In this document: piece by piece, positions 5,745 through 41,668 of the stretch
How the letters are laid out: every line of letters starts with the position of its first letter
How positions within the stretch are numbered: the stretch's first letter is position 1
Source of the DNA: Candidatus Tayloriibacteriota bacterium
Lineage (GTDB): Bacteria > Patescibacteriota > Minisyncoccia > Phycocordibacterales > HO2-43-120
Direction: 5' to 3'
Length of the DNA: 64,000 nt
Assembly (NCBI GenBank): GCA_039934295.1
Contig: JBDTMN010000005.1
Location: 921-64,920 of the forward strand
The notes under the pieces: generated by a model
Seen by the model: the letters and a program-made list of their open reading frames with translations, nothing else
Database searches by the model: none
Told to the model about the DNA's origin: nothing
Position numbers and translations under genes: made by a program

Positions 5745-5850
5745 TCCTGGATCCCTCCCCACTTTTGGAACAAACGATGTTCAAAAAATCAAAAGTGGGG
5801 AGGGATGACAAAATAAGAATTTTGTCACTTTTCACTTTCAACTTTTACTT
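5745..5850. repeat. two-hairpin repeat module (TGGATCCC-stem/loop-GGGATGAC-GACAAAATAAGAATTTTGTC-CACTTTTCACTTTCAACTTTT)
   Basis: Related copies at 40033..40105 and 41596..41668, and a partly related one at 26906..26975. The first stem differs between copies through compensatory changes. Confidence 0.7.
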
Positions 5851-6417
5851 AAGCCAGTACGTGCTCGCATTTACGGTAAAATCATACAGGGTGGAATCTT
5901 TCTCGACTGGCTTCAAGATGATGCTCGTCACATCAAGAATACGCAGACTTCTCTCTAAATCCGTAAGAAAATTGGAAAACTTATCGTATGAAGTCGTGAG
6001 AGTGAAAGACAGGCTCGCCTTGTCAAAATCGGTTTGCGCCTGACCCGTCGTACCCGTGGTGTCTGCAACCCCAGCAACTTTAGCGTCCTGCGGATTGGCC
6101 AATTTAACCGTTTTCACAAGAATACCGTGATTGTCAGCTATGCCGTTTAAATCCGATACCATTCGGACTGTGTCTACGTTGTCCGGCATGAGTTTCCCGA
6201 GTTTTTCCAGATTATCTTTCCCTATCGCCTCCTTCTTTTTCACCAGCCCATCACGGAGCGTTGTCAACTGTTTTGCTTTTTCGAGCGCATCCTGGTACAC
6301 GAGCACTTCTTTTTTCAAATCCAGATTTTTGGCGTACTGCCCGCGAATAAATCCGAAAAACAATCCAGCGGAGGCTAGTAAAAGGATAATTGGAGTTATG
6401 AGGCGGTTTGAGTACAT
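5845..6417 (-). CDS. PilO-like type IV pilus inner-membrane component
   Basis: N-terminal TM followed by a coiled-coil, 190 aa, in the pilM-N-O context; the family call rests on position and architecture. Confidence 0.55.
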   Translation of the reverse strand: MYSNRLITPIILLLASAGLFFGFIRGQYAKNLDLKKEVLVYQDALEKAKQLTTLRDGLVKKKEAIGKDNLEKLGKLMPDNVDTVRMVSDLNGIADNHGILVKTVKLANPQDAKVAGVADTTGTTGQAQTDFDKASLSFTLTTSYDKFSNFLTDLERSLRILDVTSIILKPVEKDSTLYDFTVNASTYWLK

Positions 6418-6421
6418 ATTA

Positions 6422-7099
6422 TTATCGTAAATTTGTTGTTGTCGCGGAAGAGGTCGTTGCTGTCCGCGTGGTGGAAGCTGTCGGGGAGACGATTGGGGAG
6501 ACTACCGGTGTTACTCCGGCCGAGCTAATCTTATACAGAAGCAAAGAAGGGTCAACGCTCATCTTAACTTTAAAGGAGACATTCCGGTTCTCGTCGAGGG
6601 CTAAGTCATAAAAAGAAGGGTTCTTGAACGCCTTTTGTTTTCTGAATATGTCTGACTGGAGAGTGACCGCATTAAAGCCTCTCCCTATGCCTTCCATGGA
6701 CACGTCGAAAGAACCCAATTTTTCATCGCCAAATTGAAATGTCTTGAACTGAACTGTCTGAAGGGTGAGACTTTGAAGGGCCTGAAAAAGCGAGGAAATT
6801 CCCGTATGACTTCCCAGAATTTTTTCAGCGATTTGAATTCTTTTGTCATCGCGCGCCAAATCGGCGATCAAAGCAGATTGAATGTTCTTTTGCTCCACGG
6901 CAAGCTTCTCGTCCATAACTTTAATATTATTTTTGAGATAGTAGTTGTACCCAAAGATTCCGATTGACCCAAGAAAGACTATGACGAAGAGAATTATCGA
7001 GATAAGCGAAAATAAGCCGACACTACTGCCACGGCTTCCTCCCCCGCTGTCCACAACAGGTTTTTTCGGGATAAATGATGCTTGTCCTCTTGGTTCCAT
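6422..7099 (-). CDS. PilN-like type IV pilus inner-membrane component
   Basis: Single TM after a short cytoplasmic N-terminus, then a periplasmic domain; immediately downstream of pilM. Confidence 0.55.
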   Translation of the reverse strand: MEPRGQASFIPKKPVVDSGGGSRGSSVGLFSLISIILFVIVFLGSIGIFGYNYYLKNNIKVMDEKLAVEQKNIQSALIADLARDDKRIQIAEKILGSHTGISSLFQALQSLTLQTVQFKTFQFGDEKLGSFDVSMEGIGRGFNAVTLQSDIFRKQKAFKNPSFYDLALDENRNVSFKVKMSVDPSLLLYKISSAGVTPVVSPIVSPTASTTRTATTSSATTTNLR

Positions 7100-7195
7100 A
7101 TATATTTCACTGAACTGACTCGGACTAAGAACTCGGAACGACGCTGAAGGGTTCCGATTCAGTTCCGTGTTCAGAGTCCTTGTTACTTCCGTGTT
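7100..7195 (-). repeat. ~95-nt intercistronic repeat element, copy 4 (pilM stop to pilN-like start)
   Basis: Same family as 1781..1876, with substitutions in the central hairpin region. Confidence 0.8.
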
Positions 7196-8327
7196 AATCT
7201 ACTTCCTGCAACTTTCGAAGCGCCAATCCAACCGCAACGGCAAACTCGGGACCAGCGGATTTCAAAATGTTCGCGAGAAACGCAGGTGCTTCCACTTTTG
7301 AAAAAGGGTCCGCCGAAATTACCTGTACTTGAAAAGCCTGCTCGGCCATTTTGAGAAATCCCTGCAACCCCGACCCTCCTCCCGTAAGAACGACCTTGCC
7401 AACATTTTTATTATACTTTTTCTGATAGCTTAATAATAATCTATTCGACTCGGAAAATATATAGTCAAGTGTTGATAACATTATGCCCTGCATATCCTTG
7501 TTTCCGCCACCAAGGTCGAGCCCCTTTGTTCGTTTCAGATTTTCGGCCTCTTCCACGCTTACCGACATCGCCCTGGCAATGCCCAATGTGAGGTCTTGGG
7601 AACCCCGGTCAATAATATGTGATGTCTTCAAAATGCCACGCTCGACAACATAGAGCTTGGTCGAACTTGCTCCCATGTCAAAAATCATAACCGGACTAAC
7701 CTCGGCATCGAGCACGGCTCGGATGGTGCTGAAAATCTCAATTTCAAAAAAGCTCGAATCAAGTTGCGAAAGACGAACGATTTCTCGCATGTCATTCAAA
7801 GCATCGTTGTGGATAACTACAAGAAGGACCTGGGTTTTCTCAAGTTTTTTTTGAAGCACCGGAGCGTTGTTTCCCTTGTCTCCCTGAATCTCTTCTTCCT
7901 CATTCCAGATTTTGTCCTCTCTCGGCAATATCCACCAATCGAGCGTAACTTCGGAGATAGAAACGGGAATATATTTTCTGGCCTCCAAGGGAATCATATC
8001 CGCTATCTGCTTTTGATCCGTAGTCGGCACCTCAATCAAACTAATTAAGCTCGAAGACATCGAAATAGAAATGCCGCACTTTTTTGTCGTCGCATTCGCC
8101 TCCTTTAATATATCGTTCAGAGCTTCAGCAACTTTCCCAGGCGGAAGGTGAGTCGCCCGTCCCACTTCGAGCCCGGCATAGGGACCAAGGGCAAGAGCGC
8201 CGTATGTTTCCAAAACGGCTTTTCCTTTCTCTTTTCGAAGCTGGACGAGCTTGATTGAGGAAGGTCCGATGTCCACCCCGAGGACGCTTCGGTCATTTTT
8301 TTTAAATAATTTCGATAAAAATGACAT
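7194..8327 (-). CDS. pilM: type IV pilus assembly protein PilM (actin-like ATPase fold)
   Basis: LGVDIGPSSIKLV... and MIFDMGASSTKLYVV blocks typical of PilM/FtsA-like proteins; 377 aa. Confidence 0.85.
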   Translation of the reverse strand: MSFLSKLFKKNDRSVLGVDIGPSSIKLVQLRKEKGKAVLETYGALALGPYAGLEVGRATHLPPGKVAEALNDILKEANATTKKCGISISMSSSLISLIEVPTTDQKQIADMIPLEARKYIPVSISEVTLDWWILPREDKIWNEEEEIQGDKGNNAPVLQKKLEKTQVLLVVIHNDALNDMREIVRLSQLDSSFFEIEIFSTIRAVLDAEVSPVMIFDMGASSTKLYVVERGILKTSHIIDRGSQDLTLGIARAMSVSVEEAENLKRTKGLDLGGGNKDMQGIMLSTLDYIFSESNRLLLSYQKKYNKNVGKVVLTGGGSGLQGFLKMAEQAFQVQVISADPFSKVEAPAFLANILKSAGPEFAVAVGLALRKLQEVD

Positions 8328-8475
8328 GAGTATTGGTAGGTGCTAGGTTTAAGCTGTTAGGTGTAAGTATGAACAAAAAAGAAAGTGAGAATCTTTATCA
8401 AATTTTCTTAAGCTAACACCTTACACCTCGCACCTCAAACCTGCTGACTATACATGATATGATTATAGCACTATT

Positions 8476-9144
8476 TTGGACTATATGAAAAAAATAAGCG
8501 AGTTTTTGCTTGACTTTCTTTTTCCTGCTTCAAAAAAAGCGGCAAGAATCGAGAAAATGACCGCCAGCGATTTTCGAAAGGAAATCGGGGTGGGAGACGC
8601 TATGGGAGCGCGCGGAGATAAGGATATTCACCCGCTTTTTGAATATCGACATCCCCTTGTTCGCGAGGCAATCTGGCAAATAAAATATAAAGGAAACAGA
8701 AAAATAACGAAACTCCTTTCGGAAATTCTCTACGAGGAAATCGTTGCCGAAATCGAAGATCGCGCCCTCTTTGAAAACTTTAAAAACCCGCTTTTAATTC
8801 CGGTGCCAACAAGCAAAAAGCGACTCCAAAAAAGGGGATTCAATCAGATGGAACTTTTGGGCGGGGAGCTCAAGAGTCTCGACGAAAATAGAACATTTGA
8901 ATTTAGTCCTGGCATTTTGATTAAAATAAAAGACACTCTGCCACAGACGCTTCTTAAAGATCGTCGTCTCCGCCTCGGAAATCTCGTCGGCTGTTTCGCC
9001 GTAACAGACGCGCAAAAAATTAAAAATAGAAACATCATTTTGATTGACGATGTGTTGACGACCGGCGCAACTCTCGCCGAAGCAAAACGCGCGCTTATAA
9101 ATGCAGGGGCGAGGAGAGTGATTGCGTTTACACTGGCACATTAG
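8476..9144 (+). CDS. comFC: ComF family protein (phosphoribosyltransferase domain, ComFC-like)
   Basis: C-terminal PRTase motif IILIDDVLTTGATL; 222 aa. Confidence 0.75.
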   Translation: MDYMKKISEFLLDFLFPASKKAARIEKMTASDFRKEIGVGDAMGARGDKDIHPLFEYRHPLVREAIWQIKYKGNRKITKLLSEILYEEIVAEIEDRALFENFKNPLLIPVPTSKKRLQKRGFNQMELLGGELKSLDENRTFEFSPGILIKIKDTLPQTLLKDRRLRLGNLVGCFAVTDAQKIKNRNIILIDDVLTTGATLAEAKRALINAGARRVIAFTLAH

Positions 9145-9239
9145 GGAAAGGTGTTAGGTGTTAGCTATTAGCTGTTAGCTTTTCGAAAGAGAAGAAAAAA
9201 TGGAGAGAAAAAGAAAAATGTGATACATTACGTTCAAAT

Positions 9240-9326
9240 GGAAGGGTGTCAGAGAGGCCTATTGAGCAGCTTTGCTAAAGCTGTAAGGGGTAATTCCCTT
9301 CGAGGGTTCGAATCCCTCCCCTTCCG
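9240..9326 (+). tRNA. tRNA-Ser (anticodon GCU)
   Basis: Hand-folded: 7-bp acceptor GGAAGGG/CCCTTCC, anticodon loop TTGCTAA, long variable arm, T-loop GGGTTCGAATCCC, discriminator G. Confidence 0.75.
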
Positions 9327-9384
9327 CAGCGAAAAATTGTTGCAATTTTGAGCAAGGAAGGGAGAGATGTGCCTACGCACATCT

Positions 9385-9700
9385 CGTGAGGGATTCGAAG
9401 ACCTTCTCCCTTATCCCCCACCACTTTGTTGCAATGTGGTGGGGGATGGGAAAGGTGTACTGGTCGAGTAGCGACCGTTAATCCCTCCCCTTCCGCCAAT
9501 GATTCGCAAGGACAGCCCTGATGCTGTCCGAGCGAATCATCATTGCGTGATTGGGGAGGGATTCGAAGCCCGATTGAGCATTTTTTCGAGCTTCTTAACG
9601 TAGAAAAAATCCAATCGGGGTACTGAAACTGTAAGTTTCGAATCCCTCCACTTTCTTAACCCCGCAGCGTTGCCGAGAATCGTCCCCTTCCGCAATTTTA
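9385..9700. repeat. cluster of degenerate tRNA-Ser 3'-end fragments (TTCGAATCCCTCC(CCTTCCGC)) in both orientations
   Basis: Five or more partial copies at 9385-9407, 9476-9496, 9563-9585, 9638-9655 and 9683-9697. Confidence 0.6.
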
Positions 9701-9784
9701 AAAAATTCTAATCTGACATTTTCAACAATTGCAAAATGGAGGAGAGTGGTCAAAATTTCAATTGATAAACTTTTGAAATAAACT

Positions 9785-15963: not shown

Positions 15964-18900
15964 TTAAATCCTAAAACTCTCTTTGATAATCCCCTTCTTG
16001 TTAGTCGACACATCCTTGCTCATTATCACAGTATAACTACCATCTGCGTTTTTCTTTTGAATTTCAACGCGAAATTCACCAGGTGGCACCAGACAATAGT
16101 ATCTTCCATACGCATCAGATACGACCGATTTTATTACGGCAAATTTATCCGGAGTATATACCTTTATGATTGCGTACGAGAGAGGTTGACCCGTCCGCGA
16201 ATCAATCACTGTGCCATACTGACGACCCCTAATTCCAAACATATACATCACACACAGAATGATGTAAGCGAATGAGAGAATGAGGTTTAGAGTGGAGAAG
16301 TTGAAAATATTTTCGACAATAGTAAACACCAAACCTGCTCCAAAAAGTATTTCACGTACCAGAGCAAATATTCGCTCATTTTTAGAGTGAAAAATCATCA
16401 GATCTTTGTCATGCTTTGCGAATTCGTTCCAATCAAACCCAACAGGATCTAAAGGAATATTTTTCTTCACAATTTCACCTGAAGAGATGTCAATCATTCC
16501 TCCAAAATACAAATCACCGTAGATTTCATCAAAACCTTTTCCCGACATTCGTTCCGAAGGAAATACACAGTGGGTCTTTTGAGCTTTCAACGTATACTTT
16601 CCGGGAGATAAGAGAAAACCGTATCTCCCGTCAAGGTCGGTGATTGACTCCGCTACTACGTTGCCCGAGATATCGAGTGCCGAAACAATCGCGGGATCAA
16701 GTGGCTGTTTGGTAACACTGTCGTATACCGTCCCCCATGGAGTTATTCTCTTTTTTATTCCAAAAAATATGAGGAGCAATCCCCAAAATCTTCTTAGTTG
16801 CAAAAGTAGTTCCGCAAGTGAATTGAACGACAGAGAACTTGAAACGACAGCGAGAAAAGGCACAATGAGACCGAGTGCTTTGACAACCGTTGCCTCTTTC
16901 GAATTTACAATAGTTTTGGATATACTTGTAGCGTCATCTATGATCCTTCCGACAACTGAAGTAAGACCTGAGACAATCGATACGAAAGACGTATTGCTTC
17001 CTGAAGTCGATATGCCATTGTTACCAGACGTGTTTTTTGTGTTGTCAATATTGTCAACATTATTGTCCACACTAGAATCGAAAGGTCCTGGGTTATTGTC
17101 GTTGGGATTAGTCTGCGTGTCGTTCATATTTGAATCAAGAAGAGGGTCATTCACCGGTAATTTATTTGGCGGTGGCGTCGGAATAATCGGTGGTCTAACT
17201 ACACGAGTAGTATAGTTCTTCTGGAATTCGAGTGGTATAGGTGTGCGGCGCGAAGACGAGCCTCCGGAAGAACCGCTCCCAGTAGAGCTAGGTGGCACAA
17301 CTGGAGGAACCGGACAACTTTCTGTCGCAAACATCACATCCTCTCCATAGGAAAGTCCCACGGTACTTCCGGCATATGCCGCCATGTGATAGGTGGTATC
17401 GCAAATTAAATCAGTAATCGGGGCAGTGAAAGTTCCGGCCGAGAAATCTCCCGATTCAGTTGTGGTTGAGGTGTAGGAAGCAGTAAGACCATATACGATA
17501 CCTCTCACATCTGGAATGACATCTCCTGTTGCCGTAATCGTTCCATTACCCGTAGCGGTAGTTTGGGTAATAGATGAAACTGCTTGAGTTGTAACGGTAG
17601 GGGCGAAAACGGCAATAGTGGTGGTCGAGAGTATGGCTCCAGTTGACGTGCCAGTAGAATTAACAGCATACGCTCGGAAGTAGTAGAGGGTGTTCGGAGT
17701 AAGACCGGTGAGATTTTCGGAGAATGATGCAGTTCCGATTTGAGCGCCCAAGGTTGAGGTGGCAATTACCGTCGAGAGGTCTGCTGACGTGCCATATGCA
17801 AAACCGCTTTCAGTTGCATCCTCTCCGCCGGTATCGGTGATGACTCCGTTTAAGGTCGCAGTAGTTTGAGTGACGGAAGAAGCAGCTTGGGTAGTGAGGA
17901 AGGAACCAGAAGGAGCGAGCGTGGCAGTCGAAAGAATGGAACCATACGAAGTTCCAGAAGGGTTTATGGCATACGCGCGAAAGTAGTAGGTGGTGTTCTG
18001 TTGTAGACCGGTTATATTTTGAAGGAATGAGGCTGTGCCAGTTTGAGAGCCCAAGGTTGAGGTGGCAATCACCGTCGAGAGGTCTGCTGACGTGCCATAT
18101 GCAAAACCGCTTTCAGTTGCATCGCCACCACTACCAGTAGCGGTTATTGTTCCGTTAAAGGTTATTGAAGATATAGTTATTGCAGTGGGGGGAGAAGTCG
18201 TAACATGCATCAAATCAACAAAAGTTACAGCCCCTAAAGAATCAGTGTAATTTAGTACGTCTGAAGCTGTGGCCGTACTCGTGAATGCTCCATTCAAAAA
18301 TGTGATACCTAAATTGGATATACTATTAGCCACAGCGTGACTTGAAGCAGTACCGGTAAATGTAAGAGTTGCCGTAGTACCAGCGCCGTTTACCGTCATG
18401 AGAGGAGTGAGACCGGCCGGAGCATTGCTGAGAGAGTAATCAGTATTTAAAGTGAGCGTTGAACCAGCATGAGTAAATAGGTCATTTGTAAGAGTAGCTA
18501 TGCGACTTCCAGAGACGATACCGTCATCAGCGCCGGTTTCGGTGAAAGAACCGGAGTATGAGGTAATTTTAGGTTCCGCAAATTTGTATACAATAGGTGG
18601 GTGATTGCTGTTGATACCAGCATCATTAAATATTACAAATGGAGTGTCATTGTGATCTATAGCCAAAGCAATAAAGGTTACGGCTCCAACGGAAAAACCT
18701 GAAGTGCCGACAGTGTCCCACGAGGAACCACTCCATTTTTTTACCACAATTTTGTCAGCAGGAATTGTGGTAGAATCAGCATATGCTATATATGGAGTAC
18801 CTAATGAATCCGTAGCGATATTCACACTAGATGCTACTCCATCAGAAAAACCGCGTGTCCCGATAAGATTCCAGGTTGCTCCATTATATTTATATACGGT

Positions 18901-19818
18901 AGCTTTTCCGCTATAAGGCGCTGGGAGATCAGAGTACCCTACATATGGCAATATACCCGTAGAATCAAGAGCTAATATTTTTTGAGCCTGTACACCGAAA
19001 CCTGAAATACCAGTACTTCCAATGGGGACATATTCCCAATTTAGCCCATTTAATTTTTTTACTACAGCTCTATTTCCTCCACCCACACCGGTATCTTCAT
19101 ATGCAAGATAGGGAACATTAGAAGAATTTATTTTAATTGCTATTTTGAATGCTGAATCAACCGAAATTGTAAATGGAGCCGTAAAAGGACTAGCACCACC
19201 GACATACAGCCAAGCAGAACCGTTCCATTTTCGAACTACAGTCTTATAGTTAGATGCGTCAACAAGATCACTATATGCTATATATACAAGACCTGTTGAA
19301 TCAATGGCGATAGATGGCTCACTTTGTAGATACCACTGACTTAAGCAAGCGGTGCCTTCATATACCCAATTTACTCCATCGAATTTTTTAACGCTTATGC
19401 CAAATTGTCCTTGAGTAGGACAATGTTGATCTCTAAACGCAACATATGGAACGCCAGAAGGACTGAGAGCCAGACGTGAGTAAAGAGCGCCAACGCCACC
19501 ATTGATATCTGCACTGCCCACTAAAGTCCACGACGAACCATTCCATTTTTTTAAATAACTTTTGCCGGTATCATAATATACGACATATGGTATATTTTGG
19601 GAATCAAAGACTATATCCTCCCAGGCTCCTCCATGTGGAGGAGTAAATTCTGATATTGAACCACTACCAACGATAGTCCATTGAGTAACGGCTAGTGCAT
19701 TCTGGGCAATAGAAAAACTTACAATAACTGTAAAAAGCGCAAGGGCATATTTAAAGTTTTTACTATTTCGTATTTTTGACATAAAACAATTAATGGTAAC
19801 TACCTGTATTATTGCCAT
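15964..19818 (-). CDS. giant secreted surface protein (beta-propeller-like repeats, FN3-like domains, low-complexity linker, multi-TM region, two carboxypeptidase-regulatory-like domains)
   Basis: ORF track 15964..19830 with a TTG start; the ATG MAIIQ... lies at 19816-19818 and MSKIRN... is another possible start. A signal peptide is present. Repeated ~50-aa units contain PYVAY...KW/KYNGSSW. Three or more ...TYYFRAYA...G.S.G modules are present. The C-terminus has GTVYDS...DGRYGF and GTVIDS...YGRYY blocks. Confidence 0.7.
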   Translation of the reverse strand: MAIIQVVTINCFMSKIRNSKNFKYALALFTVIVSFSIAQNALAVTQWTIVGSGSISEFTPPHGGAWEDIVFDSQNIPYVVYYDTGKSYLKKWNGSSWTLVGSADINGGVGALYSRLALSPSGVPYVAFRDQHCPTQGQFGISVKKFDGVNWVYEGTACLSQWYLQSEPSIAIDSTGLVYIAYSDLVDASNYKTVVRKWNGSAWLYVGGASPFTAPFTISVDSAFKIAIKINSSNVPYLAYEDTGVGGGNRAVVKKLNGLNWEYVPIGSTGISGFGVQAQKILALDSTGILPYVGYSDLPAPYSGKATVYKYNGATWNLIGTRGFSDGVASSVNIATDSLGTPYIAYADSTTIPADKIVVKKWSGSSWDTVGTSGFSVGAVTFIALAIDHNDTPFVIFNDAGINSNHPPIVYKFAEPKITSYSGSFTETGADDGIVSGSRIATLTNDLFTHAGSTLTLNTDYSLSNAPAGLTPLMTVNGAGTTATLTFTGTASSHAVANSISNLGITFLNGAFTSTATASDVLNYTDSLGAVTFVDLMHVTTSPPTAITISSITFNGTITATGSGGDATESGFAYGTSADLSTVIATSTLGSQTGTASFLQNITGLQQNTTYYFRAYAINPSGTSYGSILSTATLAPSGSFLTTQAASSVTQTTATLNGVITDTGGEDATESGFAYGTSADLSTVIATSTLGAQIGTASFSENLTGLTPNTLYYFRAYAVNSTGTSTGAILSTTTIAVFAPTVTTQAVSSITQTTATGNGTITATGDVIPDVRGIVYGLTASYTSTTTESGDFSAGTFTAPITDLICDTTYHMAAYAGSTVGLSYGEDVMFATESCPVPPVVPPSSTGSGSSGGSSSRRTPIPLEFQKNYTTRVVRPPIIPTPPPNKLPVNDPLLDSNMNDTQTNPNDNNPGPFDSSVDNNVDNIDNTKNTSGNNGISTSGSNTSFVSIVSGLTSVVGRIIDDATSISKTIVNSKEATVVKALGLIVPFLAVVSSSLSFNSLAELLLQLRRFWGLLLIFFGIKKRITPWGTVYDSVTKQPLDPAIVSALDISGNVVAESITDLDGRYGFLLSPGKYTLKAQKTHCVFPSERMSGKGFDEIYGDLYFGGMIDISSGEIVKKNIPLDPVGFDWNEFAKHDKDLMIFHSKNERIFALVREILFGAGLVFTIVENIFNFSTLNLILSFAYIILCVMYMFGIRGRQYGTVIDSRTGQPLSYAIIKVYTPDKFAVIKSVVSDAYGRYYCLVPPGEFRVEIQKKNADGSYTVIMSKDVSTNKKGIIKESFRI

Positions 19819-20357
19819 AGAATACCACAAGCTCGCAACTCACGCACACTACTCTAATAACAAAATTTAAACTAGGATCAAACTCATGAGGTGCTATTTT
19901 CTGGAATTTCAAGAATATGCAGATTGCCTCTATAAATTTTTTCTCAAGTGTCACACAAGACCGCCCCCACCAAAGCGCACTAGGCGCTAGGAAACTAGGC
20001 AGTAGGCTCTAGCAGAAATGCTAATGCCTAAAGCCTAATGAATTTCGGTGGGGAAGGAAGGAGAGGATGACGCCAGGTCAGCATGTCCCTCTGATATCCT
20101 ATGCTGGCGGCGAAGCAAAACCAAAAATTTCCTTTCCATTTTTTGTCGGCCCCCCACACTCACCCGCCGAGGAAAATAAGAAAGGTAAGGAAAATTTTTG
20201 GGTTTTGCATTGCGACCGTAGGGGCAGACGAGGCGCGCAGATTAATAGCAATCATCAGGATTTAGTTCGAAATACATTCGAACTTCGTTCAGTAGATACC
20301 GCCCAATTTTGAAATTGAAAATTGGGACGGGAGATGGAAGAAAATAATTTTTATATT

Positions 20358-23000
20358 CTAGATATCCGACAAGATAAACGTCCTCGTTATCGGTCCGAAG
20401 AATCCTACGGGAGGCGTGATGCCATGAGCTAACTGGAACTTGGAGAGAGCGGAGCGGGTAAGAGCTCCGAAGTAGGTGGTCTCATTGCCTGGAGAACCAA
20501 AGCCCGAAAGAGCAAGAGTGAATCCTTTGGAATTTAAGTATTGCTGAAGGAGTTTTACATCGCTTCCCACTGATCCCGAACCAAGATTACGGGTGAAGGA
20601 AAGCGGGGTGAGAACAGGCGGGAGTCCTATTCCCGGAGTAATTTCCACAACTGGAGCGATTCCCGACGTATTTGGACTACACATGTATCCTGAAGGATTC
20701 TCCGGAAACGGAATCAGGGTATATCCTTCGGCGCAGACTGGAAGAGCAGATGATGGTGAAGGTAATTGAGAAATGAAGTTCGCACTGCGACCGCCACTTG
20801 AGCTTCTCCTTCTTGAGGGGGTGGGAGTGGGGGAAGGTTCTTCTGTAGGACAAGCAGTTGTAGAAAATGAGATGATAGAGCCATAAGCGGTGGCTACAGG
20901 ATTTGTAGCATAAGCTCTCACGAAATATTCTGTATCACAGGTGAGGCCGGTCATGGTGCTAGTCCAGGGGCCACCGATGGCGAAACCATCTGTGGTTTTA
21001 GTGGAAAGAGCAGTGGTGGGATTTATTACTGTATCCCAGACGAGACCACTAACTGTCACTGTTGCTCCACCATTTGAAGATATAGTACCGCCACCAACTG
21101 CAGTGGTTTGAGTGATGGAAGTGACTGGGATTGTAGTGGTTACAGTGGGGACAACCACGCTACTAACCGTAACTGTAATTGGTGAAGATGTTGTGGTATT
21201 TCCAACATTGTCTCTTGCAACTGCAGTCAAAACATGGTCTCCGTCTGAAACAGAAGTCGCGTCCCAAATGATTCCATATGTAGAAGTAGTGTCTTCTATA
21301 TCCAGATTTATACTATCTAGCTTGAATTGAACACCCACAACACCAAAATCATCAGAAGCATCGGCCGTAATGGAGACAGATGCACCAGAAACAACTGCTA
21401 GATCAAGTGGAGCTGTGATTGAAATACTCGGCGCCGTTGTATCAATCACAATCGCCTTGTTGGCGGCTAAGTTGGTAGCTGGAATGAAGCTCGACATTGC
21501 ATTACCAGAGAGGTCGGCAATAGTGCCAGAGATTGAGTTGGTGTCTAAGTCGAGAGATGTGTCTCCAGCTTGTACGGTGTAATTACAAGTGCCGGTAGTA
21601 GAACCAGAGACCGTGAAGGTACATGTCCGGTCAGTGGCGCCAGTTTCGAGAGTGACTGTGACGCTACCAGTGGAAGTAACCGTCTCGGAGAAAGTGACGT
21701 CAATATCGATCACCTCTCCTGTCTTGTAGGTACCGTTTGCTTTGTCAGAGGAAACGTTGGTGATGGTGGGAATAGTTGGATCAATGGTTGAAACTGAAGC
21801 TTTGTTAGGGCCGTTTGCGGCATCCCAATATCCTAAATATGGATTATTATTTGAATCTAAATCTAAAGATGTGAAAGTACCTATAGATGATGTAAAACCG
21901 GCACTACCCACAGCTTCCCAAGATGAACCGTTATATTTCATGACAGTTGTCCTTAAACCATTTGCTCCATCGGAAAATCCTACATAAGGTACATCTAAAG
22001 AATCGAAGGCGAGAGATGGCCACTCTGATCCAGTGGCTCCTCCATTAAAACCAGCGCTACCAACGTTACTCCACGAACCACTGGTAAATTTCATGACAGT
22101 AATTCTATTGCTGGTTCCAACATCTTTATATGCTACATATGGAATGTTAGTGGAATCTAACTTGATTGAAGTGCTAAATACCTGTCCAGCCGAAAATGCA
22201 GGACTACCTACGACTACCCAAGATGAGCCATTATATTTCATGACTGTAGCTTTATTACCCCTGCCTGAAAAATGGTCACTGAAGGCAACATACGGTACAC
22301 CAGTAGAATCAAGAGCAAGAGAAACTTGGTCACCTTGCCCATCTGAAAAACCATTTCCAGATGAAGCACCTACTGTGGACCAGGAAGTACCATTAAATTT
22401 CTCAAGGGCAACCTTACCGCCGTCTGGAAAATAATCCATATGCGCTACATATATATTATTTGAAGAATCAATGGCAATAGAGGGGTAGTCCGCTTGTTGG
22501 CTGGTGGCAGCCACAGAGCCCACAGTTACCCACGATGAACCGTCAAATTTTTTAACCACAGCTTTATAGCTATTTCCACCAGTTCCGCCATCTTGCATTG
22601 CAACGTATGGGTTACCGCTAGAATCAAATGCCATAGTAGGAGTATATGAATCATTTCCTGAAATCCCAGTGCTACCCGAAGGCAGGGTTACCCAAGATGA
22701 ACCATTATATTTCAAAACCATTATTTTATTACTATTTCCGCTATCCCTATATGCAACATAAGGAGTATTAGTAGAGTTTAAAACAAGGTTAAGATAACTG
22801 GGTGTACCAGCTGAGAAGCCGAGACTCCCCACATTTGTCCATCCTATCGCTAGAACGTTCTGAACGTTTTGAACGTAGACCCCCGCAACTACCAAAAAAG
22901 CAAATGTCGGAAACAAAACAAAACTGTACCTGCGTTTTTTTAGCATATTTCGCATTTTGGACACAAAACAATTCATGGTAACTACCTGTATTATTGCCAT
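20358..23000 (-). CDS. giant secreted surface protein, paralog 2 (beta-propeller-like repeats, Ig/FN3-like domains, C-terminal peptidoglycan-binding domain)
   Basis: Same conserved N-terminus MAIIQVVTMNCF... Repeated PYVAY.D...K(Y/F)NGSSW units. The C-terminus VKLLQQYLNSKGF...GALTRSALSKFQLAHGITPPVGFFGPITR matches a PG_binding_1-type module. Confidence 0.7.
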   Translation of the reverse strand: MAIIQVVTMNCFVSKMRNMLKKRRYSFVLFPTFAFLVVAGVYVQNVQNVLAIGWTNVGSLGFSAGTPSYLNLVLNSTNTPYVAYRDSGNSNKIMVLKYNGSSWVTLPSGSTGISGNDSYTPTMAFDSSGNPYVAMQDGGTGGNSYKAVVKKFDGSSWVTVGSVAATSQQADYPSIAIDSSNNIYVAHMDYFPDGGKVALEKFNGTSWSTVGASSGNGFSDGQGDQVSLALDSTGVPYVAFSDHFSGRGNKATVMKYNGSSWVVVGSPAFSAGQVFSTSIKLDSTNIPYVAYKDVGTSNRITVMKFTSGSWSNVGSAGFNGGATGSEWPSLAFDSLDVPYVGFSDGANGLRTTVMKYNGSSWEAVGSAGFTSSIGTFTSLDLDSNNNPYLGYWDAANGPNKASVSTIDPTIPTITNVSSDKANGTYKTGEVIDIDVTFSETVTSTGSVTVTLETGATDRTCTFTVSGSTTGTCNYTVQAGDTSLDLDTNSISGTIADLSGNAMSSFIPATNLAANKAIVIDTTAPSISITAPLDLAVVSGASVSITADASDDFGVVGVQFKLDSINLDIEDTTSTYGIIWDATSVSDGDHVLTAVARDNVGNTTTSSPITVTVSSVVVPTVTTTIPVTSITQTTAVGGGTISSNGGATVTVSGLVWDTVINPTTALSTKTTDGFAIGGPWTSTMTGLTCDTEYFVRAYATNPVATAYGSIISFSTTACPTEEPSPTPTPSRRRSSSGGRSANFISQLPSPSSALPVCAEGYTLIPFPENPSGYMCSPNTSGIAPVVEITPGIGLPPVLTPLSFTRNLGSGSVGSDVKLLQQYLNSKGFTLALSGFGSPGNETTYFGALTRSALSKFQLAHGITPPVGFFGPITRTFILSDI

Positions 23001-23186
23001 AGAATACCACAAGCTAGCAACTCACGCACACTACTCTAATAAAGTTTGGCCTCGCCTAATACCCCGCCGAGGTACTCCAAGGGGACAGCTTGCTCTCGGG
23101 ATAGGACGAGACAAACCTTTATTTCGCAGTTGTATTTGCAATGAGTAGTCTGGTATTATATAAATCTATAAGCTATTTAAAATGCC

Positions 23187-26413: not shown

Positions 26414-26881
26414 ATGAATAAAAATTATGTCATCGGCGGGATTGTCGTCATAGTGGTAATCGCGGTTATCGCATTAGCAATGAACAAGGGAAACACAGCC
26501 CTTGCGCCATCAGAAATTTCTCCATCACCAAGCGTAACTGAGAGCGTCACACCCACCCCAACCCCAAATCCGACAGTGAGCACAAACCCGGGAACGAGTA
26601 CGGTGGCAAAGGTCATCGTAATCTATACTAATTCCGGATTCTCTCCAAAAACGGTTACAGTAAAAAAGGGTTCGACAGTGGAATTCGTCAACCAGTCCGA
26701 TGGAGGCATGTCGGTCGCTTCCGACCCACATCCTACTCATGTAATTTATCCCGAATTTGACCAATACAAGACGAGTGCTCGGGGACTAAAGGTGTTTGAT
26801 TTCGTCTTCGACAAAGTCGGCACGTGGGGATACCACAATCATATGCAAGCATCGAACACGGGAACAGTTATAGTTCAATAA
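26414..26881 (+). CDS. hypothetical membrane-anchored secreted protein (possible cupredoxin-like fold)
   Basis: N-terminal TM, Thr/Pro-rich linker, beta-rich C-terminus with His residues; no motif recognised. Confidence 0.35.
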   Translation: MNKNYVIGGIVVIVVIAVIALAMNKGNTALAPSEISPSPSVTESVTPTPTPNPTVSTNPGTSTVAKVIVIYTNSGFSPKTVTVKKGSTVEFVNQSDGGMSVASDPHPTHVIYPEFDQYKTSARGLKVFDFVFDKVGTWGYHNHMQASNTGTVIVQ

Positions 26882-26905
26882 ACTACAGAATTCCTATTCT
26901 GTCGT

Positions 26906-26975
26906 CCCCGCGAAAGCGGGGTCCAGATTAATCTAGATTCCCGCGTCCGCGGGACTGACATTCGGAAATGTCATT
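26906..26975. terminator. tandem hairpins (CCCCGCGAAAGCGGGG; CCCGCGTCCGCGGG; TGACATTCGGAAATGTCA), terminator-like
   Basis: Three GC-rich stem-loops between two plus-strand genes; resembles the two-hairpin repeat family. Confidence 0.5.
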
Positions 26976-26987: not shown

Positions 26988-27371
26988 ATGCCTACCTCTC
27001 CATCTCAAAAAAATAAAACTGTCTGGCTTCTTATTCGTGTAGCAATCGCGTTCGCTTTCTTCTACCCGGCGATTAAAATCCACATTGACCCAGACTCGTG
27101 GCTTAGCTATTTTCCTCCATTTATTAAGACTGTGGGGATTCCGCAAATTGTTATTCTCTATCTTTTCACCGCAGTCCATCTTGCTATCGGCATTTGGATC
27201 CTCTCCGGTAAACGCATCTTCATCCCCTGCCTCCTCGCAACACTTTTTCTTGCCGGTCTCATCCTTACAAACCTAAGCCAGATGGACATTCTTTTTCGGG
27301 ATGTTTCCCTTCTCCTTATCACTCTCGCTCTGGCGATACAAAGCAAAAACTCATCACCTCAAATTCGGTAA
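26988..27371 (+). CDS. hypothetical membrane protein (4 TM)
   Basis: ORF with hydrophobic segments. Confidence 0.4.
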   Translation: MPTSPSQKNKTVWLLIRVAIAFAFFYPAIKIHIDPDSWLSYFPPFIKTVGIPQIVILYLFTAVHLAIGIWILSGKRIFIPCLLATLFLAGLILTNLSQMDILFRDVSLLLITLALAIQSKNSSPQIR

Positions 27372-30246: not shown

Positions 30247-30343
30247 CCACCACGTAGCCAGGTACTTTTCAATCTCGCAGACTCGATAATGAAAAGTCTT
30301 TCGAGTCCCTCACAGAAGCCAAGCAGTTGGCTTCTTCTTGCGG

Positions 30344-30416
30344 TGCGCGCGGAGGGACTCGAACCCCCGACCGATCGAGTATAAGTCGACTGCTCTACCA
30401 ACTGAGCTACGCGCGC
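30344..30416 (-). tRNA. tRNA-Ile (anticodon UAU)
   Basis: Hand-folded cloverleaf: acceptor GCGCGCG/CGCGCGC, D-stem GCTC/GAGC, anticodon loop CTTATAC, T-loop TTCGAGT, discriminator A. No encoded CCA. Confidence 0.65.
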
Positions 30417-33445: not shown

Positions 33446-33793
33446 GAGTGACCTTTCTATTTGTACTATTTTCGAACAGTCTCGCGACTCAAACGAAACA
33501 AGCCCCGCTTTAGGGCTTGTTTTTATCATCATTATGAGTCGGCGTGGGAAATTAATAACAAAAACAAACCCTAAAGTGAGTTGAGATTTTCTTGTCCTTC
33601 TTTACATTTTGTACCTGTATTCGATTCATTGCGTATACTCTATATGAACTCAATAAAATAATCAAGGAGCAATGAGTGTAACGCGCAGCGTGTAACGTGT
33701 AACGTCTGAGAAAAACAATTACCTTTCCTCTCATGTTGCACTTCTGATTCCATGCATTTTGCGCTACACTTCAGATACTGTTATGATTTTTCC

Positions 33794-34240
33794 ATGCAAA
33801 GTCTTATCGAAAACAAACGAATACACCTCGATTACGAAATCCTGGAAAAATTCGATGCGGGCATCGAGCTTTTTGGCTTTGAAGTAAAATCTCTCAAAAA
33901 CAGACTTGGGTCTCTCTTGGGCGCCCATGTAACGATACGAGGCGGCGAAGCATATGTTATTAATTCTTTTATCCCAGCATACCAAGAAAAAAATGCTCCA
34001 AAAGAGTATGACCCAAGGCGCAATCGCAGGCTTTTGCTTACCCGAAATGAGATCGAGCGCCTCGCCGAGATTGAAGGAAAAAAGGGGTTGACAATAGTAC
34101 CAGTTTCGGTATATAATAAAGAGCGTAAGATAAAGGTAAGTATAGCCGTCGTAAGAGGCAAGAAGAAATACGACAAACGGGAGGATTTGAAAAAGAAGCA
34201 GTCAGAGAGAGACATACGCAGAGAACATAAAGAACGTTGA
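33794..34240 (+). CDS. smpB: SsrA-binding protein SmpB
   Basis: IENKRIHLDYEILEKFDAGIELFGFEVKS... with the typical SmpB N-terminus and basic C-terminal tail. Confidence 0.9.
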   Translation: MQSLIENKRIHLDYEILEKFDAGIELFGFEVKSLKNRLGSLLGAHVTIRGGEAYVINSFIPAYQEKNAPKEYDPRRNRRLLLTRNEIERLAEIEGKKGLTIVPVSVYNKERKIKVSIAVVRGKKKYDKREDLKKKQSERDIRREHKER

Positions 34241-34245
34241 AAAAT

Positions 34246-34669: not shown

Positions 34670-34786
34670 AGAGCGACTATATTTTTGTAGGACTCAGTTT
34701 TCGTTTCGAAAACGGAGTATCACAAAAGAGCGACTATATTTTTGTAGGACTCAGTTTTTGTCTTCAAAAACTGAATATCACAAAAT
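34670..34786 (+). repeat. two tandem ~57-nt repeats, each with a hairpin
   Basis: AGAGCGACTATATTTTTGTAGGACTCAGTTTT(c/t)G...CACAAA occurs twice. Confidence 0.7.
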
Positions 34787-34818
34787 AAAATCACCCCTGC
34801 AGGGGTGATTTTATTTTG
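34787..34818. terminator. intrinsic terminator (AAAATCACCCCTGCAGGGGTGATTTTATTTT)
   Basis: Perfect GC-rich stem flanked by A and T runs between convergent transcription units. Confidence 0.75.
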
Positions 34819-38905: not shown

Positions 38906-39108
38906 AATAGTTTTTTATTCTGATAATGACTAATTAATTTCTTTTTTTAGGCGTTACTGATACAAGTAGTGCATTGCGCTCTATCGTCAGTACTTCGCGA
39001 GAGAATGGGCCGTTTTCAAAACTTTTTTTCATACATTGTGATTCGTGTTTTCTAGTAATGAATCCTAATTATAATGTAATGTATCTGCGTTTCCTAACTG
39101 CTGAACCC

Positions 39109-40029
39109 CTACATTTTCTTCAACTCCTCAATTCCCTCCTCAAACTTTATTTCGGGCGTCCAGCCAAGAAGTTTCTTCGCCAGCGCTGTGTCCGCAAGTG
39201 TGTTTTTTGGCTCGAGGCGGGCGGGAATAAACTTTACCGCACCTCCGATAATCTCGGCAACTTGGAGCACCGATCGGTTTTTTCCCCCACCCACATTGAT
39301 TACTTCCCCTCTCCCTACTCGGGTACTTTCCATCGAAAGCAAGTTCGCCCGAACCACATCACGAACATGAGTGAAATCTCGCGTCTGCTTGCCATCTCCT
39401 GTTATGGTCATCGGTTTCCCTTCGCTTTTCAGTTTCAAAAACTTGGCAACCACTAAAGCATACGCTCCCTCATGGCTCTGTCTCGGACCATAGACGTTGA
39501 AATAGCGGAGTGACACAGTTGGCAGTTTGTAGACCTCGCTCCAGAGCTTCATATACAACTCGCCAATATATTTCTGAAGACCGTACGGACTTTTGGGGTT
39601 GGCAATCATCTTCTCCTTCAAGGGCAAAGTTTTCTGGTCTCCGTATGCCGAGCTCGAAGCGGAATAGATAACTCTTTTTATCTTGTGCTTATGCGAAGCG
39701 ATAAGGACATTCAAAGTCCCTCCGACATTTGCTTCATTGGTCTCGCTCGGATGCTCGATCGAAAACTGAACGCGGGGAAGTGCGGCAAGATGAAAAACGT
39801 ATTCCGCATTCTTGAAAATCGGGTCAATGCCCGCCAAATCAGTGATATTTTTGTTGTGAAAAATAGCTTCCGAATTTACATTTACTTTTTTTCCTTGAGA
39901 AAGATCGTCAATGACATGAACTTCAAAACCGCGCTCGAGAAGCGCGTCCGAGAGATGCGACCCGATGAATCCGGCTCCGCCGGTGACTATTACTTTTACT
40001 TTTTTCATATTTTTAGTACGAAATATCAA
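39109..40029 (-). CDS. NAD-dependent epimerase/dehydratase (SDR family)
   Basis: Rossmann motif TGGAGFIGSHL and a YxxxK context; the start may be the Met of MKKVKVIV. Confidence 0.8.
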   Translation of the reverse strand: MIFRTKNMKKVKVIVTGGAGFIGSHLSDALLERGFEVHVIDDLSQGKKVNVNSEAIFHNKNITDLAGIDPIFKNAEYVFHLAALPRVQFSIEHPSETNEANVGGTLNVLIASHKHKIKRVIYSASSSAYGDQKTLPLKEKMIANPKSPYGLQKYIGELYMKLWSEVYKLPTVSLRYFNVYGPRQSHEGAYALVVAKFLKLKSEGKPMTITGDGKQTRDFTHVRDVVRANLLSMESTRVGRGEVINVGGGKNRSVLQVAEIIGGAVKFIPARLEPKNTLADTALAKKLLGWTPEIKFEEGIEELKKM

Positions 40030-40032
40030 TTA

Positions 40033-40105
40033 TTCCTGGATCCCTCGATTAATCTGGATCCCCGTCTTCACGGGGATGACGAAATAAGAATTTCGTCACT
40101 TCCCT
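40033..40105. repeat. two-hairpin repeat module, copy 2
   Basis: CTGGATCCCCGTCTTCACGGGGATGACGAAATAAGAATTTCGTCACTT. Confidence 0.7.
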
Positions 40106-41438
40106 ACAAACGATAACAAAATTTTTACTGTTCGCAAAGCAATCTTGAGGTCAAGCAAGAAAGAGCGATTTTTTATGTAGTACAAATCATAGGCAAGTTT
40201 GTTGCGCGTCTCCTCTCTGCCAATCTCATGGTGGGCATGAAGACTGTCATTTATCTGCGCCCACCCTGAAAGTCCCGGCTTTATGAGATGGCGAATACGG
40301 TAGTAGGAAATTTCCTTCTCATACAGCCTCACTCCCGACAGAAGTTCGGGGCGAGGACCAATGAGAGACAGGTAGCCCGCAATGACGTTTGCAAGCTGGG
40401 GAAGTTCATCCAAACGGGTTCTGCGCAAGAATAAGCCAACTCGAGTGACCCTGTTATCACTTGCCTTTCCCAGATCGGTTTCATTTCGTGACATTGTTCG
40501 AAATTTATACACACGTATTACACGGTCATTCTGTCCGACGCGATCTTGAACGATAAAAGCCGGCCCTCTTGTATCCAGCTTAATCGCGATAATAATAAAC
40601 GGATAAAACGGCACGGAGAGAACGAGAGCAACAGCACCCAAGACAATGTCCAAAATTCTCTTCAAAAAGTCGTAAGTCTTCCTCGGTAAAAGAGAAATAT
40701 TCTCGAGAATCCACTGATCGCGTATTAGTGAAAGGGGCAGGCGGTCAAATATGTTCTCATAGAGAACGTCCATTTCCAGAAATTGCACGCCTCCAAAAAG
40801 GAGCGGGTACAAATGAGGGAGAATGGGAGTGATTTTTTCGTTTTTGAAATCAATGATAATGTAAGAAACTTGGGTAAAAGAAACTTTCTTCATTATTGCA
40901 TCTTTCAAGTCCGGTCCTAGAATCTTTTCGAGATCAATGAAAGAAGAAATATGCATACCGTATCTTGGATTAGCATTTATTTCCTTTTGAAGCTCTCGCG
41001 CCTCTTTACCCGAGGAGATGAGCATAGTATTCTGCTTTTTCCGATAGCTCGCCAATCGATACCCGTACCGTCTCCAGAAAAAAACAAGAAAAAAGGATAT
41101 GAAGAGAGTGCCAAATAGATTCGTCTTCGGAGTAATCCCGAACGAAGGAATGAGATAGAAAAAAAGAACGGCGATTATGCTGTTCACTACCTCCGAGTGA
41201 AATACGATGGAGGGCAATTTTCCTTTAAGAAGCGTTGTGTGGCGGTCGTAGAGCCCGGCGATGAAGAAAACGAGTACCCAGACAAGAAAGAGAATGGAAA
41301 AGGGTCGCAAGTGCGACTCAAAAATGTGCAAAAATTCTCCCTGATAGCGCACTAGAAGTGTAATCAAAAGCGATAAGAAAAAAATGAAAATATCGCCAAC
41401 AAAAAGAATGACGGCTTCTTTTTTATTGAGAATAGGCA
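40096..41438 (-). CDS. polyprenyl-phosphate sugar phosphotransferase (bacterial sugar transferase, WbaP/CpsE-like)
   Basis: C-terminal catalytic domain ...GPRPELLSGV...KPGLSGWAQIN... with an N-terminal multi-TM region. The start is moved to MPILNKK...; the ORF track extends to 41592 across a repeat module. Confidence 0.8.
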
Positions 41439-41595
41439 TATCGATAAGTATAAAGTTGAACGTGTAAAGTATAAAGTAGAGAGATAGAGGTAAAACAAAT
41501 GTACAACTAAAAGCGGACCGAGTCAATGCTTTATGGATTAGTGCCGGATTGCTATCATGTGTAGTAAGACTCCTTTGCCTTTTTTTATTCAAATG

Positions 41596-41668
41596 ACTGG
41601 ATCCCCGCTAAGCGGGGATGACAGAATGAGAATTCTGACACTTTACACTTTTTACTTTCAACTAAATT
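41596..41668. repeat. two-hairpin repeat module, copy 3
   Basis: CTGGATCCCCGCTAAGCGGGGATGACAGAATGAGAATTCTGACACTTTACACTTTTTACTTTCAACT. Confidence 0.7.

Follow-up and report, generated by a model that had tools for sequence, protein, structure and literature searches.

A two-hairpin intergenic repeat in a Taylorbacteria genome as a probable relative of the Neisseria Transformation Sequence

What kind of element is a short two-hairpin repeat that recurs between the genes of a Candidatus Tayloriibacteriota bacterium, and is it RNA or DNA that has to fold for it to function? The repeat is found in a stretch of 64,000 nucleotides of contig JBDTMN010000005.1 (assembly GCA_039934295.1), called the window in the following. 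An original prediction, made from the letters of this stretch, described a module of two hairpins with compensatory stem changes and proposed an RNA-level function, such as a terminator-antiterminator, a small RNA or the site of an RNA-binding protein. The module does exist, and its quoted sequences are present where they had been located. The present analysis, however, leads to another assignment, namely that the GC hairpin with its oriented flanks is probably an Ssn-related motif (SRM), a DNA repeat that is dispersed between genes and functions as a hairpin of single-stranded DNA (ssDNA).

There are five copies at four intergenic sites in the window: 5747-5850 (c1), 40036-40098 (c2), 41597-41664 (c3) and an inverted pair at 26885-26973 (c4a and c4b). 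On the plus strand, the unit is composed of CTGGAT, the GC hairpin (hpB), ATGAC that opens an AT-rich hairpin (hpA) of the general form TGAC-N5-NRGA-N5-GTCA and, in c1 and c3, a run of ACTTTNN heptamers. The three copies described earlier as clear are indeed so, while the "related copy" proposed at 26906-26975 is not a single unit but the two copies c4a and c4b, arranged around ATTAAT. The exact 9-mer CTGGATCCC occurs four times, always on the plus strand, compared to an expectation of 0.40, and this number is reached in 0 of 100 shuffles. A covariance model built from c1-c3 alone (R1), run over the 64 kb with filters off, recovers the two held-out copies c4a (E=1.4e-8) and c4b (E=1.7e-5), and gives no further match below E=0.3 except reverse-strand echoes of the palindromes. 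In the five copies 94.8% of the cells are paired, and the observed pairing and compensation are matched in none of 500 shuffles. Seven of the 16 pairs have changed on both sides and none on one side only, with no G.U, which bears out the covariation that had been claimed for the stems.

We now turn to the identity of the GC hairpin. Chenal et al. (Nat Commun 2025, PMC11893778) described the Neisseria Transformation Sequence (NTS), CGTCATTCCCGCGMAVGCGGGAATCYRG, which contains the older dRS3 repeat ATTCCC-N8-GGGAAT, and a broader class, the SRMs, which are hairpin repeats that are mostly intergenic, cluster around particular genes and flank ssn genes. SsnA is a small single-domain GIY-YIG protein (cd10448) that binds and cuts the NTS solely as ssDNA and on one strand, and not as double-stranded DNA or RNA. 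In the same study, the C directly after the palindrome was the most critical base for binding, and the three bases GTC before the palindrome mattered most for cutting, while the loop was free and the stem could be lengthened. The cut was placed a few nucleotides 5' of the motif; judging by how long the oligonucleotides are and how the mutants are numbered in that text, we infer a distance of 3-5 nt. The NTS-ssnA-NTS architecture was noted there as being like an insertion sequence (IS).

Read on the opposite strand, the GC hairpin of the window has the form (C/T)GTCAT-CCCCGN..NCGGGG-ATCCAG. Copy c2 departs from the 28-nt NTS consensus at four positions, which constitute two compensated base pairs, and c4b has three mismatches to the 28-nt NTS consensus and one to dRS3. 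The flanks are GTCAT...ATCCAG in c1, c2 and c3, GTCGT...TCCAG in c4a and GTCAG...ATCTAG in c4b, such that GTC on the 5' side of the stem and TC-Y-R-G on its 3' side, the positions reported as critical for cutting and binding (PMC11893778), are kept in five copies out of five. The stems of all copies are perfect, with lengths of 6-15 bp, the upper value being that of c1, whose stem is extended and holds an inner 5-bp hairpin; the inserted stem, CCCCACTTTTGG, matches no other repeat family within the window. With DNA parameters, the NTS-strand ssDNA folds have energies between -12.6 and -27.3 kcal/mol (z between -5.9 and -8.4), the most stable being c1 (-27.3 kcal/mol, z=-8.4). The sequences of the GTCAT strand are CGTCATCCCCGTGAAGACGGGGATCCAG for c2, TGTCATCCCCGCTTAGCGGGGATCCAG for c3, TGTCATCCCTCCCC...GGGGAGGGATCCAG for c1, TGTCGTCCCCGCGAAAGCGGGGTCCAG for c4a and TGTCAGTCCCGCGGACGCGGGAATCTAG for c4b. 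It is because of this match to the NTS in both sequence and structure that we assign the five copies to the SRM family.

The flanking blocks had been described as conserved and single-stranded. They are conserved but partly paired: the AT of CTGGAT pairs with the AT of GGGGAT, and the TGAC of ATGAC serves as first arm of hpA. Likewise, the flanks do look like the recognition site of a protein, as had been suggested; they match, however, a family of targets for an ssDNA nuclease rather than the site of an RNA-binding protein.

An RNA-level element has nevertheless to be weighed against this, be it a terminator or attenuator, a stabiliser of mRNA 3' ends, a site of processing between cistrons or one bound by an RNA-binding protein. 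As had been noted, the copies sit at gene ends: all five are intergenic and next to stops or starts. When the orientation relative to the flanking transcription is examined, c1, c2 and c4a are seen to start 0-20 nt after the stop codon of a gene on the same strand as GTCAT, and c3 and c4b to end shortly before a start codon, which makes their transcription probable. Strong folds are predicted for the RNA (z from -2.6 to -6.4), and REP-like (repetitive extragenic palindromic) hairpins stabilise the upstream mRNA in other bacteria.

The kind of base pairs found in the stems bears on this point. When an RNA helix drifts between C-G and U-A, G.U pairs normally appear as intermediates, which are not tolerated in DNA hairpins. 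No G.U is present in the window copies, and when 143 distinct SRMs were aligned to the model there was one in about 1,140 stem cells, although one stem position is C.G in 103 sequences and U.A in 39. In this alignment the stem is 99.6% paired and 7 of the 8 pairs show compensatory changes; since the sequences were fitted to the model, the pairing is somewhat inflated, but G.U pairs would not be removed by this procedure. Furthermore, the RNA of either strand folds equally well in every copy, and no U-tract follows either hairpin in either orientation, whereas canonical terminators consisting of a hairpin and a T-run do occur elsewhere in the window (Table 1). The Rfam search that had been called for gave no match at the gathering thresholds nor up to E=10, the best at E up to 10 being FtrB with 24.5 bits against a cut-off of 66. 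Copy c3 has no upstream gene on its own strand to terminate, and the conserved flanks are already explained by the DNA-level family. Since the covariation is of the Watson-Crick type only, the two strands fold equally, the U-tract is absent and Rfam gives no match, we consider the repeat more likely to be a DNA-level than an RNA-level element. The RNA-level function of the original prediction is not supported in any of the forms it had been given, and we regard it as improbable.

The next question concerns the distribution of the repeat in other genomes. The strict pattern GGGATGACNNAATNAGAATTNNGNCAC, which includes the hpA sequence, has 0 matches in 185,579 species genomes and 0 in the JGI metagenome contigs, and the exact composite therefore appears private to this genome. 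The relaxed pattern CTGGATCCCC-N4-16-GGGGATGAC-NNNNTNNGAA, which covers the GC hairpin, the flanks and four hpA positions, is on the other hand found in more than 120 metagenome contigs among the matches listed, compared to a chance expectation that we estimate to be below 1. These contigs have GC contents of 0.30-0.72 and nothing else in common with the window, and they often carry an inverted second hairpin, GTCATTCCCGCGAAAGCGGGAATCCAG. The core pattern CTGGATCCCC-N4-16-GGGGATGAC is also present, as a pattern match only, in 41 stretches of predicted viral contigs (IMG/VR, L142-L182).

Three of the fetched contigs (L128, L123 and L140) have the layout SRM, GIY-YIG gene, inverted SRM, with a hairpin of the ATCCCC type; L123 and L140 are of CPR origin (Roizmanbacteria type). 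The proteins of L123 and L128, 95-97 aa long, were identified at the level of the Pfam family GIY-YIG (PF01541). Of the 120 best homologues of the protein from L123, with identities of 73-85%, every one with a named source comes from Candidatus Roizmanbacteria or the Patescibacteria group, and L140 belongs to the Roizmanbacteria assembly GCA_016214055.1. SRM-ssn units exist, in other words, in bacteria of the Candidate Phyla Radiation (CPR). Contig L123 contains in addition two exact copies of the c2 hairpin (identical 27-mers). Its GIY-YIG gene has an in-frame TAA at codon 14, which makes it either a pseudogene or the product of an assembly error.

Closer to the window, the covariance model R1 finds no match at the orthologous loci of the nearest Taylorbacteria, which were reached through the sugar transferase and have protein identities of 52-63%; the scan of related genomes that had been called for was negative there. 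Other repeat families occupy these loci. The nearest named relative (L013, Taylorbacteria GCA_001822555.1) has its own two-hairpin repeat, (T)CATCCCCGACGCTTYGGTCGGGG-CTCCGACCGAAGCGTCGGAG, which usually precedes arrays of the TTCGTAT type and twice directly precedes an ATG, that of the SecD and SecF genes. Its two hairpins can pair with each other, and its TCAT...TCCGA flanks are faintly SRM-like. The same contig also holds a second family, CCCCTCTTTAGAGGGG....

We now consider the second hairpin. Through its TGAC/GTCA pairs, hpA closes on the 5' flank of the SRM itself. The compensatory pairs that had been proposed for this stem are present, with the exception that in c3 the arms GACAGAAT/ATTCTGAC leave one A.A mismatch. 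The two compensatory changes, A-T to G-C at two positions, show that the structure of hpA is maintained. A folding-based count for other genomes has GTC in full pairing with bases upstream of it in 42 of 254 SRMs, and is used here in place of the 0 of 265 given by a stricter script. The partner in nearly all of the 42 is the ATGAC of a tail-to-tail SRM, with a spacer of about 25 nt that is often itself a hairpin. Seen in this light, hpA resembles the junction between two paired SRMs, the second GC hairpin having been lost or never having been present. The combination of SRM and hpA, with or without the tail, is likely a lineage-specific composite of this Taylorbacteria genome.

The symmetry of hpA, a near-perfect 9+9 palindrome with a 4-nt spacer, also raises the option of a promoter or operator, in which hpA would bind a dimeric regulator or carry an extended -10 box (TGnCAAAAT / TGnCAGAAT) for the downstream gene. 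A scan gives at c3, on the minus strand (41661-41632), TTGAAA-18-CAGAAT together with an upstream TG, and the genome lacks Shine-Dalgarno sequences, with several genes having TATAAT-like boxes near their ATG. The -35/-10 geometry, however, fits c3 only: the spacer of c1 is 11 nt, and the CGAAAT of c2 is without the key A2, according to our own reading. Promoter-like matches in the region number 9, compared to 6.3 +/- 2.9 in shuffles, and the half-sites of hpA change in a compensatory way, which is the behaviour of a folded strand and not of an operator. This option is therefore very improbable.

The ACTTTNN tail is a separate kind of repeat, being one of about 25 arrays with a period of 7 or 8 in the window, and similar arrays follow SRMs in the low-GC contigs L068, L076 and L092. 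The recurrence of the tail motif that had been noticed in the 23S gene is real. The array is at 49447-49482, in intervening sequence of this gene, which holds several group I introns; the array has 16-18-mers in common with the tails of c1 and c3 and adjoins a GTCGAGAAGC/GCTTCTCGAC hairpin at a 23S exon border.

It is important to point out that a number of observations weigh against the SRM assignment. The published SRM string, HGTCWYN(0-2)YYVSBRHN(0-5)WNVSBRGN(0-2)RNCYNB, fits in our own implementation one of the five copies (c2), with 0.2 expected in shuffles. By our reading, it misses c3 because the loop is one base shorter, c1 because of the long stem insert, and c4a and c4b because of their variant flanks; the string is stricter on loop geometry than the biology described in PMC11893778. 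In the predicted ssDNA fold, both the GTC determinant and the inferred cut site are taken up in the stem of hpA, which could block an ssDNA nuclease. Moreover, neither a motif scan nor tblastn gives a GIY-YIG open reading frame (ORF) within the window, the density of five copies per 64 kb is modest, and the biological role has been demonstrated in Neisseria only.

Another possibility is that the repeat is selfish or a relic without host function, SRM plus hpA having spread as a small mobile or recombination-prone palindrome that is tolerated at gene ends, possibly stemming from past IS-like SRM-ssn-SRM elements or from horizontal acquisition. The motif is near-identical in unrelated organisms over GC contents of 0.30-0.72, and an exact 27-mer of the c2 type is present in L123, both of which suggest horizontal spread. 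The IS-like character of NTS-ssnA-NTS (PMC11893778), the in-frame TAA of the apparently decaying ssn gene in L123, the lack of an ssn gene in the window and the nested insertion that the stem of c1 resembles all go in the same direction, as do the Taylorbacteria relatives (about 60% amino-acid identity), which have other repeat families and not this one. On the other side, the fact that five of five copies keep GTC, TC-Y-R-G and perfect though differing stems indicates continuing selection or very recent spread, and neither target-site duplications nor terminal inverted repeats were seen by eye. This explanation is compatible with all observations, as well as with the SRM assignment; as a full account of the repeat, we consider it possible but unlikely.

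If the repeat is an SRM, as we favour, the Neisseria system provides a scenario for its action. The GTCAT strand would become single-stranded, as incoming transforming DNA or perhaps in replication or repair intermediates, and the hairpin would form. An Ssn, a single-domain GIY-YIG protein of about 95-100 aa (cd10448), would bind the stem and the C just 3' of it, and introduce a nick into the same strand, a few nucleotides away on the 5' side of (C)GTCAT. The nick would shorten the incoming ssDNA and trim its homology, leading to less integration, or to modulated recombination, around the SRM-flanked genes. By analogy, this genome would encode an Ssn by which the copies of the window would be bound or cut. 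An effect of the SRMs on transformation in this host is plausible, by the same analogy, because the window carries type IV pilus genes. Patescibacteria, which are ultra-small, have competence-type pili and presumably rely on DNA uptake.

One can also speculate that the constant fusion to hpA lets the genome's own copies bind Ssn and yet resist cutting, or that it defines a new two-hairpin specificity, which in either case could serve to discriminate self from foreign ssDNA. We consider this to have a small chance of being correct, but if it were, hpA-protected SRMs would enable an organism that imports DNA to distinguish its own single strands from foreign ones.

In more general terms, the results place the SRM/Ssn system in Patescibacteria, with SRM-flanked GIY-YIG genes in contigs of the Roizmanbacteria type and SRM copies in the Taylorbacteria window. 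Should the Neisseria mechanism apply, the hairpins would mark genes for the pilus, for surface polysaccharide and for a secreted cupredoxin-like protein as ones whose exchange by transformation is modulated. A candidate for a new structured RNA is at the same time removed from the list, and covariation restricted to Watson-Crick pairs can be used to tell DNA hairpin repeats from RNA motifs. The novelty is modest, consisting of the Taylorbacteria host, with SRM-ssn units in other CPR contigs, and of the constant fusion to a hairpin that sequesters the flank. A literature search for REP-like repeats in CPR/Patescibacteria gave nothing relevant.

Table 1. Coordinates of the repeat copies, of SRM-ssn units in other contigs and of further features. 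Positions refer to the window unless a contig is named; bits and E-values are those of the covariance model.
Feature	Position	Strand	Description
c1 SRM/NTS-like hairpin	5747-5810	-	TGTCAT-CCCTCCCCACTTTTG...CAAAAGTGGGGAGGG-ATCCAG; 69.9 bits
c1 hpA	5806-5827		TGACAAAAT-AAGA-ATTTTGTCA; TGAC/GTCA closing pairs = SRM 5' flank
c1 tail	5825-5850	+	heptamers CACTTTT CACTTTC AACTTTT ACTT; TRF period 7, 3.9 copies
c4a	26885-26926	+	hpA ACAGAAT-TCCT-ATTCTGT (26885-26902), then SRM variant GTCGT-CCCCGC-GAAA-GCGGGG-TCCAG (26901-26926); E=1.4e-8
c4b	26933-26973	-	SRM TGTCAG-TCCCGCG-GAC-GCGGGA-ATCTAG (26933-26960) and hpA TGACATT-CGGA-AATGTCA (26956-26973); E=1.7e-5
Partial left end adjoining c2	40036-40053	+	CTGGATCCC TCGATTAAT (= CTGGATCCCTCGATTAAT)
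c2 SRM	40054-40081	-	CGTCATCCCCGTGAAGACGGGGATCCAG; 78.3 bits
c2 hpA	40077-40098		TGACGAAAT-AAGA-ATTTCGTCA
c3 SRM	41597-41623	-	TGTCAT-CCCCGC-TTA-GCGGGG-ATCCAG; 73.8 bits
c3 hpA and ACTTTNN heptamer tail	41619-41664	+	TGACAGAAT-GAGA-ATTCTGACA, one A.A mismatch
Heptamer array without SRM	49447-49482	+	ACTTTTT ACTTTCA ACTTTAC ACTTTTT ACTT
SRM, GIY-YIG gene, SRM in L128	5035-5064; 5079-5366; 5364-5393	SRMs +, -	
SRM, GIY-YIG gene, SRM in L123	5411-5440; ~5455-5747; 5766-5795	SRMs +, -	in-frame TAA in the gene
SRM, GIY-YIG gene, SRM in L140	9922-9951; 10001-10294; 10304-10333	SRMs +, -	
Two-hairpin repeat in L013	2919-2958; 4398-4437; 6230-6269; 8926-8965		
PilO-like gene	5845-6417	-	
Cupredoxin-like gene	26414-26881	+	
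Sugar transferase gene	40096-41439	-	
92-aa ORF	41671-41949		begins MPPKKKLLYIITKSNWGEA...
Group 1 glycosyltransferase (GT1) gene	41958-43181		
Canonical terminators	34792-34807; 58017-58032; 60337-60356		
Period-7/8 arrays (examples)	5252-5334; 8335-8442; 9152-9180; 33676-33705; 41446-41478; 45762-45833; 52404-52438; 59872-59906; 60903-60974; 61487-61514; 61673-61765		
(ACGTTAC)x4.3 array	42315-42344		perfect; inside GT1 coding region
GTGTAAC array	33676-33718		upstream of 162-aa ORF 33752-34240
119-nt repeat family	1780-1898; 2939-3057; 3429-3547; 7098-7216		64-86% identity to reference copy
CCAAGGGTTACCCTTGG hairpin repeat family	62035-63989		at least 5 copies; conserved flanks (AATATGGGTAGATTGCG...)
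Tandem 57-nt units (two)	34670-34785		each a predicted hairpin
1288-aa ORF	15964-19830	-	
884-aa ORF	20358-23012	-	
tRNA-Ile	30342-30416	-	anticodon TAT (ARAGORN)
23S rRNA gene	47100-57189	-	
Group I introns in 23S gene	48010-48368; 49982-50265; 50296-50643; 52473-52674; 54311-54588		

The genes around the copies are of several kinds. Copy c1 lies between the PilO-like gene, into whose TAA stop the c1 tail runs, and a 113-aa ORF. Copy c2 is found between a polyprenyl-phosphate sugar transferase gene, whose TGA stop codon is contained in hpA, and one for an NAD-dependent epimerase; the partial left end adjoining c2 is probably the remnant of a second, inverted copy as at c4. The neighbours of c3 are the same sugar transferase and the group 1 glycosyltransferase. 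This copy is located about 155 nt upstream of the sugar transferase start, such that the gene lies between c2 and c3, which share one orientation, and the tail of c3 stops 6 nt before the ATG of the 92-aa ORF. The latter resembles by eye the N-terminus of a GT4 glycosyltransferase, has no Pfam match and probably represents what is left of a gene, with the intact GT1 gene downstream of it. The pair c4 is flanked by the cupredoxin-like gene and a 127-aa ORF, with c4a beginning 3 nt past the stop of the former and c4b, which is head to head with c4a, ending 14 nt before the ATG at 26988. The short-read contigs L001, L135 and L136 (Logan, SRR26386571), which belong to the same organism and match the window with 100% identity, terminate at or within intergenic repeats, L001 just past c3; the intergenic repeats appear to break assemblies.

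The window is rich in other repeats. Most intergenic spacers contain short tandem arrays with a period of 7-8 (GTTAGCT/GTTAGGT, TAACTGA, TTCGTAT, GTGTAAC, ACTTTNN and others), in which an inverse array is often located across a central hairpin and the sense array reaches the start codon. The Shine-Dalgarno sequence is absent from almost all genes of the window. Literature searches found no description of such period-7/8 intergenic arrays. Within the coding region of GT1, the perfect (ACGTTAC)x4.3 array represents an inverted complement of the GTGTAAC array. The 119-nt family, which is built of CACGGAA-type units and their complements, is positioned between successive minus-strand pilus and secretion genes. 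The two tandem 57-nt units come just downstream of the tmRNA gene, with one of the canonical terminators after them, and a further hairpin repeat family is found near the end of the window (Table 1).

The two large minus-strand ORFs of 1288 and 884 aa have a common 97-nt stretch, 95% identical, that spans the called TTG start and sequence just upstream. Both have internal repeats with a period of about 150 nt, and the two may represent paralogous surface proteins. The group I introns interrupt the 23S rRNA gene, nonamer arrays (AACTTTATA) flank the rRNA pieces, and the intervening sequence contains ORFs, one of which, near 51500, is LAGLIDADG-like by eye. The anticodon of the tRNA-Ile, TAT, is uncommon in bacteria.

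Finally, the repeat can be compared with known systems. With rho-independent terminators it has in common a GC-rich hairpin directly after stop codons, and it differs in having no U-tract, in its conserved and oriented flanks and in that one copy lies upstream of the genes on both sides. A terminator scan of 39000-43400 gave none at c2 or c3, where the hairpins are followed by ATCCAG... or, on the other strand, by CACTTT.... The view that it is not a generic terminator, already expressed in the original prediction, can thus be retained. A CRISPR array is rejected because the copies are kilobases apart or inverted and not regularly spaced direct repeats, although the GC hairpin presumably resembles type I-E CRISPR repeats.

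The REP elements and bacterial interspersed mosaic elements (BIMEs), with their IS200/IS605-like REP-associated tyrosine transposases (RAYTs), are similar in that they are short extragenic palindromes, often occur as inverted pairs, form ssDNA hairpins for a dedicated small nuclease and possibly stabilise mRNA as a side effect. Their partner is, however, an HUH protein and not one of the GIY-YIG family. In addition, no GTAG-like tetranucleotide is found beside the stems, which speaks against REP/RAYT, and no Y1-transposase signature was noticed in the window, where not every ORF was scanned and a RAYT gene was not searched for systematically. The organellar double-hairpin elements (PMC2800124) also consist of two adjacent hairpins that have spread through the intergenic DNA of a small genome, with nested insertions, but they have no sequence relationship to the present repeat, are organellar and have no known partner nuclease.

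In Neisseria, dRS3 and the Neisseria intergenic mosaic elements, in which ATTCCC-N8-GGGAAT flanks RS units, come closer: c4b, with AGTCCC-N8-GGGAAT, is one mismatch off, and in both cases the hairpin is combined with other short repeats in intergenic mosaics. There is no exact match, however, the other window copies being ATCCCC-N7/8-GGGGAT or longer, and neither hpA nor the heptamer arrays show a sequence relationship to the RS units. The closest system is that of the SRM/NTS. Four of the five window copies differ from it in the first stem pair, which is C.G (ATCCCC/GGGGAT) instead of T.A, and all five have in addition the fused AT-rich second hairpin, in which the GTCA flank is paired. The host is a metagenome-assembled genome of the Patescibacteria (Taylorbacteria), a group not named in the main text of PMC11893778. 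The likeness extends, on the other hand, to the GC-rich hairpin of 6-8 bp with a short free loop, to the oriented flanks, (C)GTCAT on the 5' side and ATCYRG on the 3' side, and to the compensatory variation of the stem. It includes also the many intergenic copies, often in inverted pairs (here c4a/c4b) or bracketing genes (c2/c3), and the small GIY-YIG genes that the ATCCCC-type motif flanks, in CPR contigs as well.

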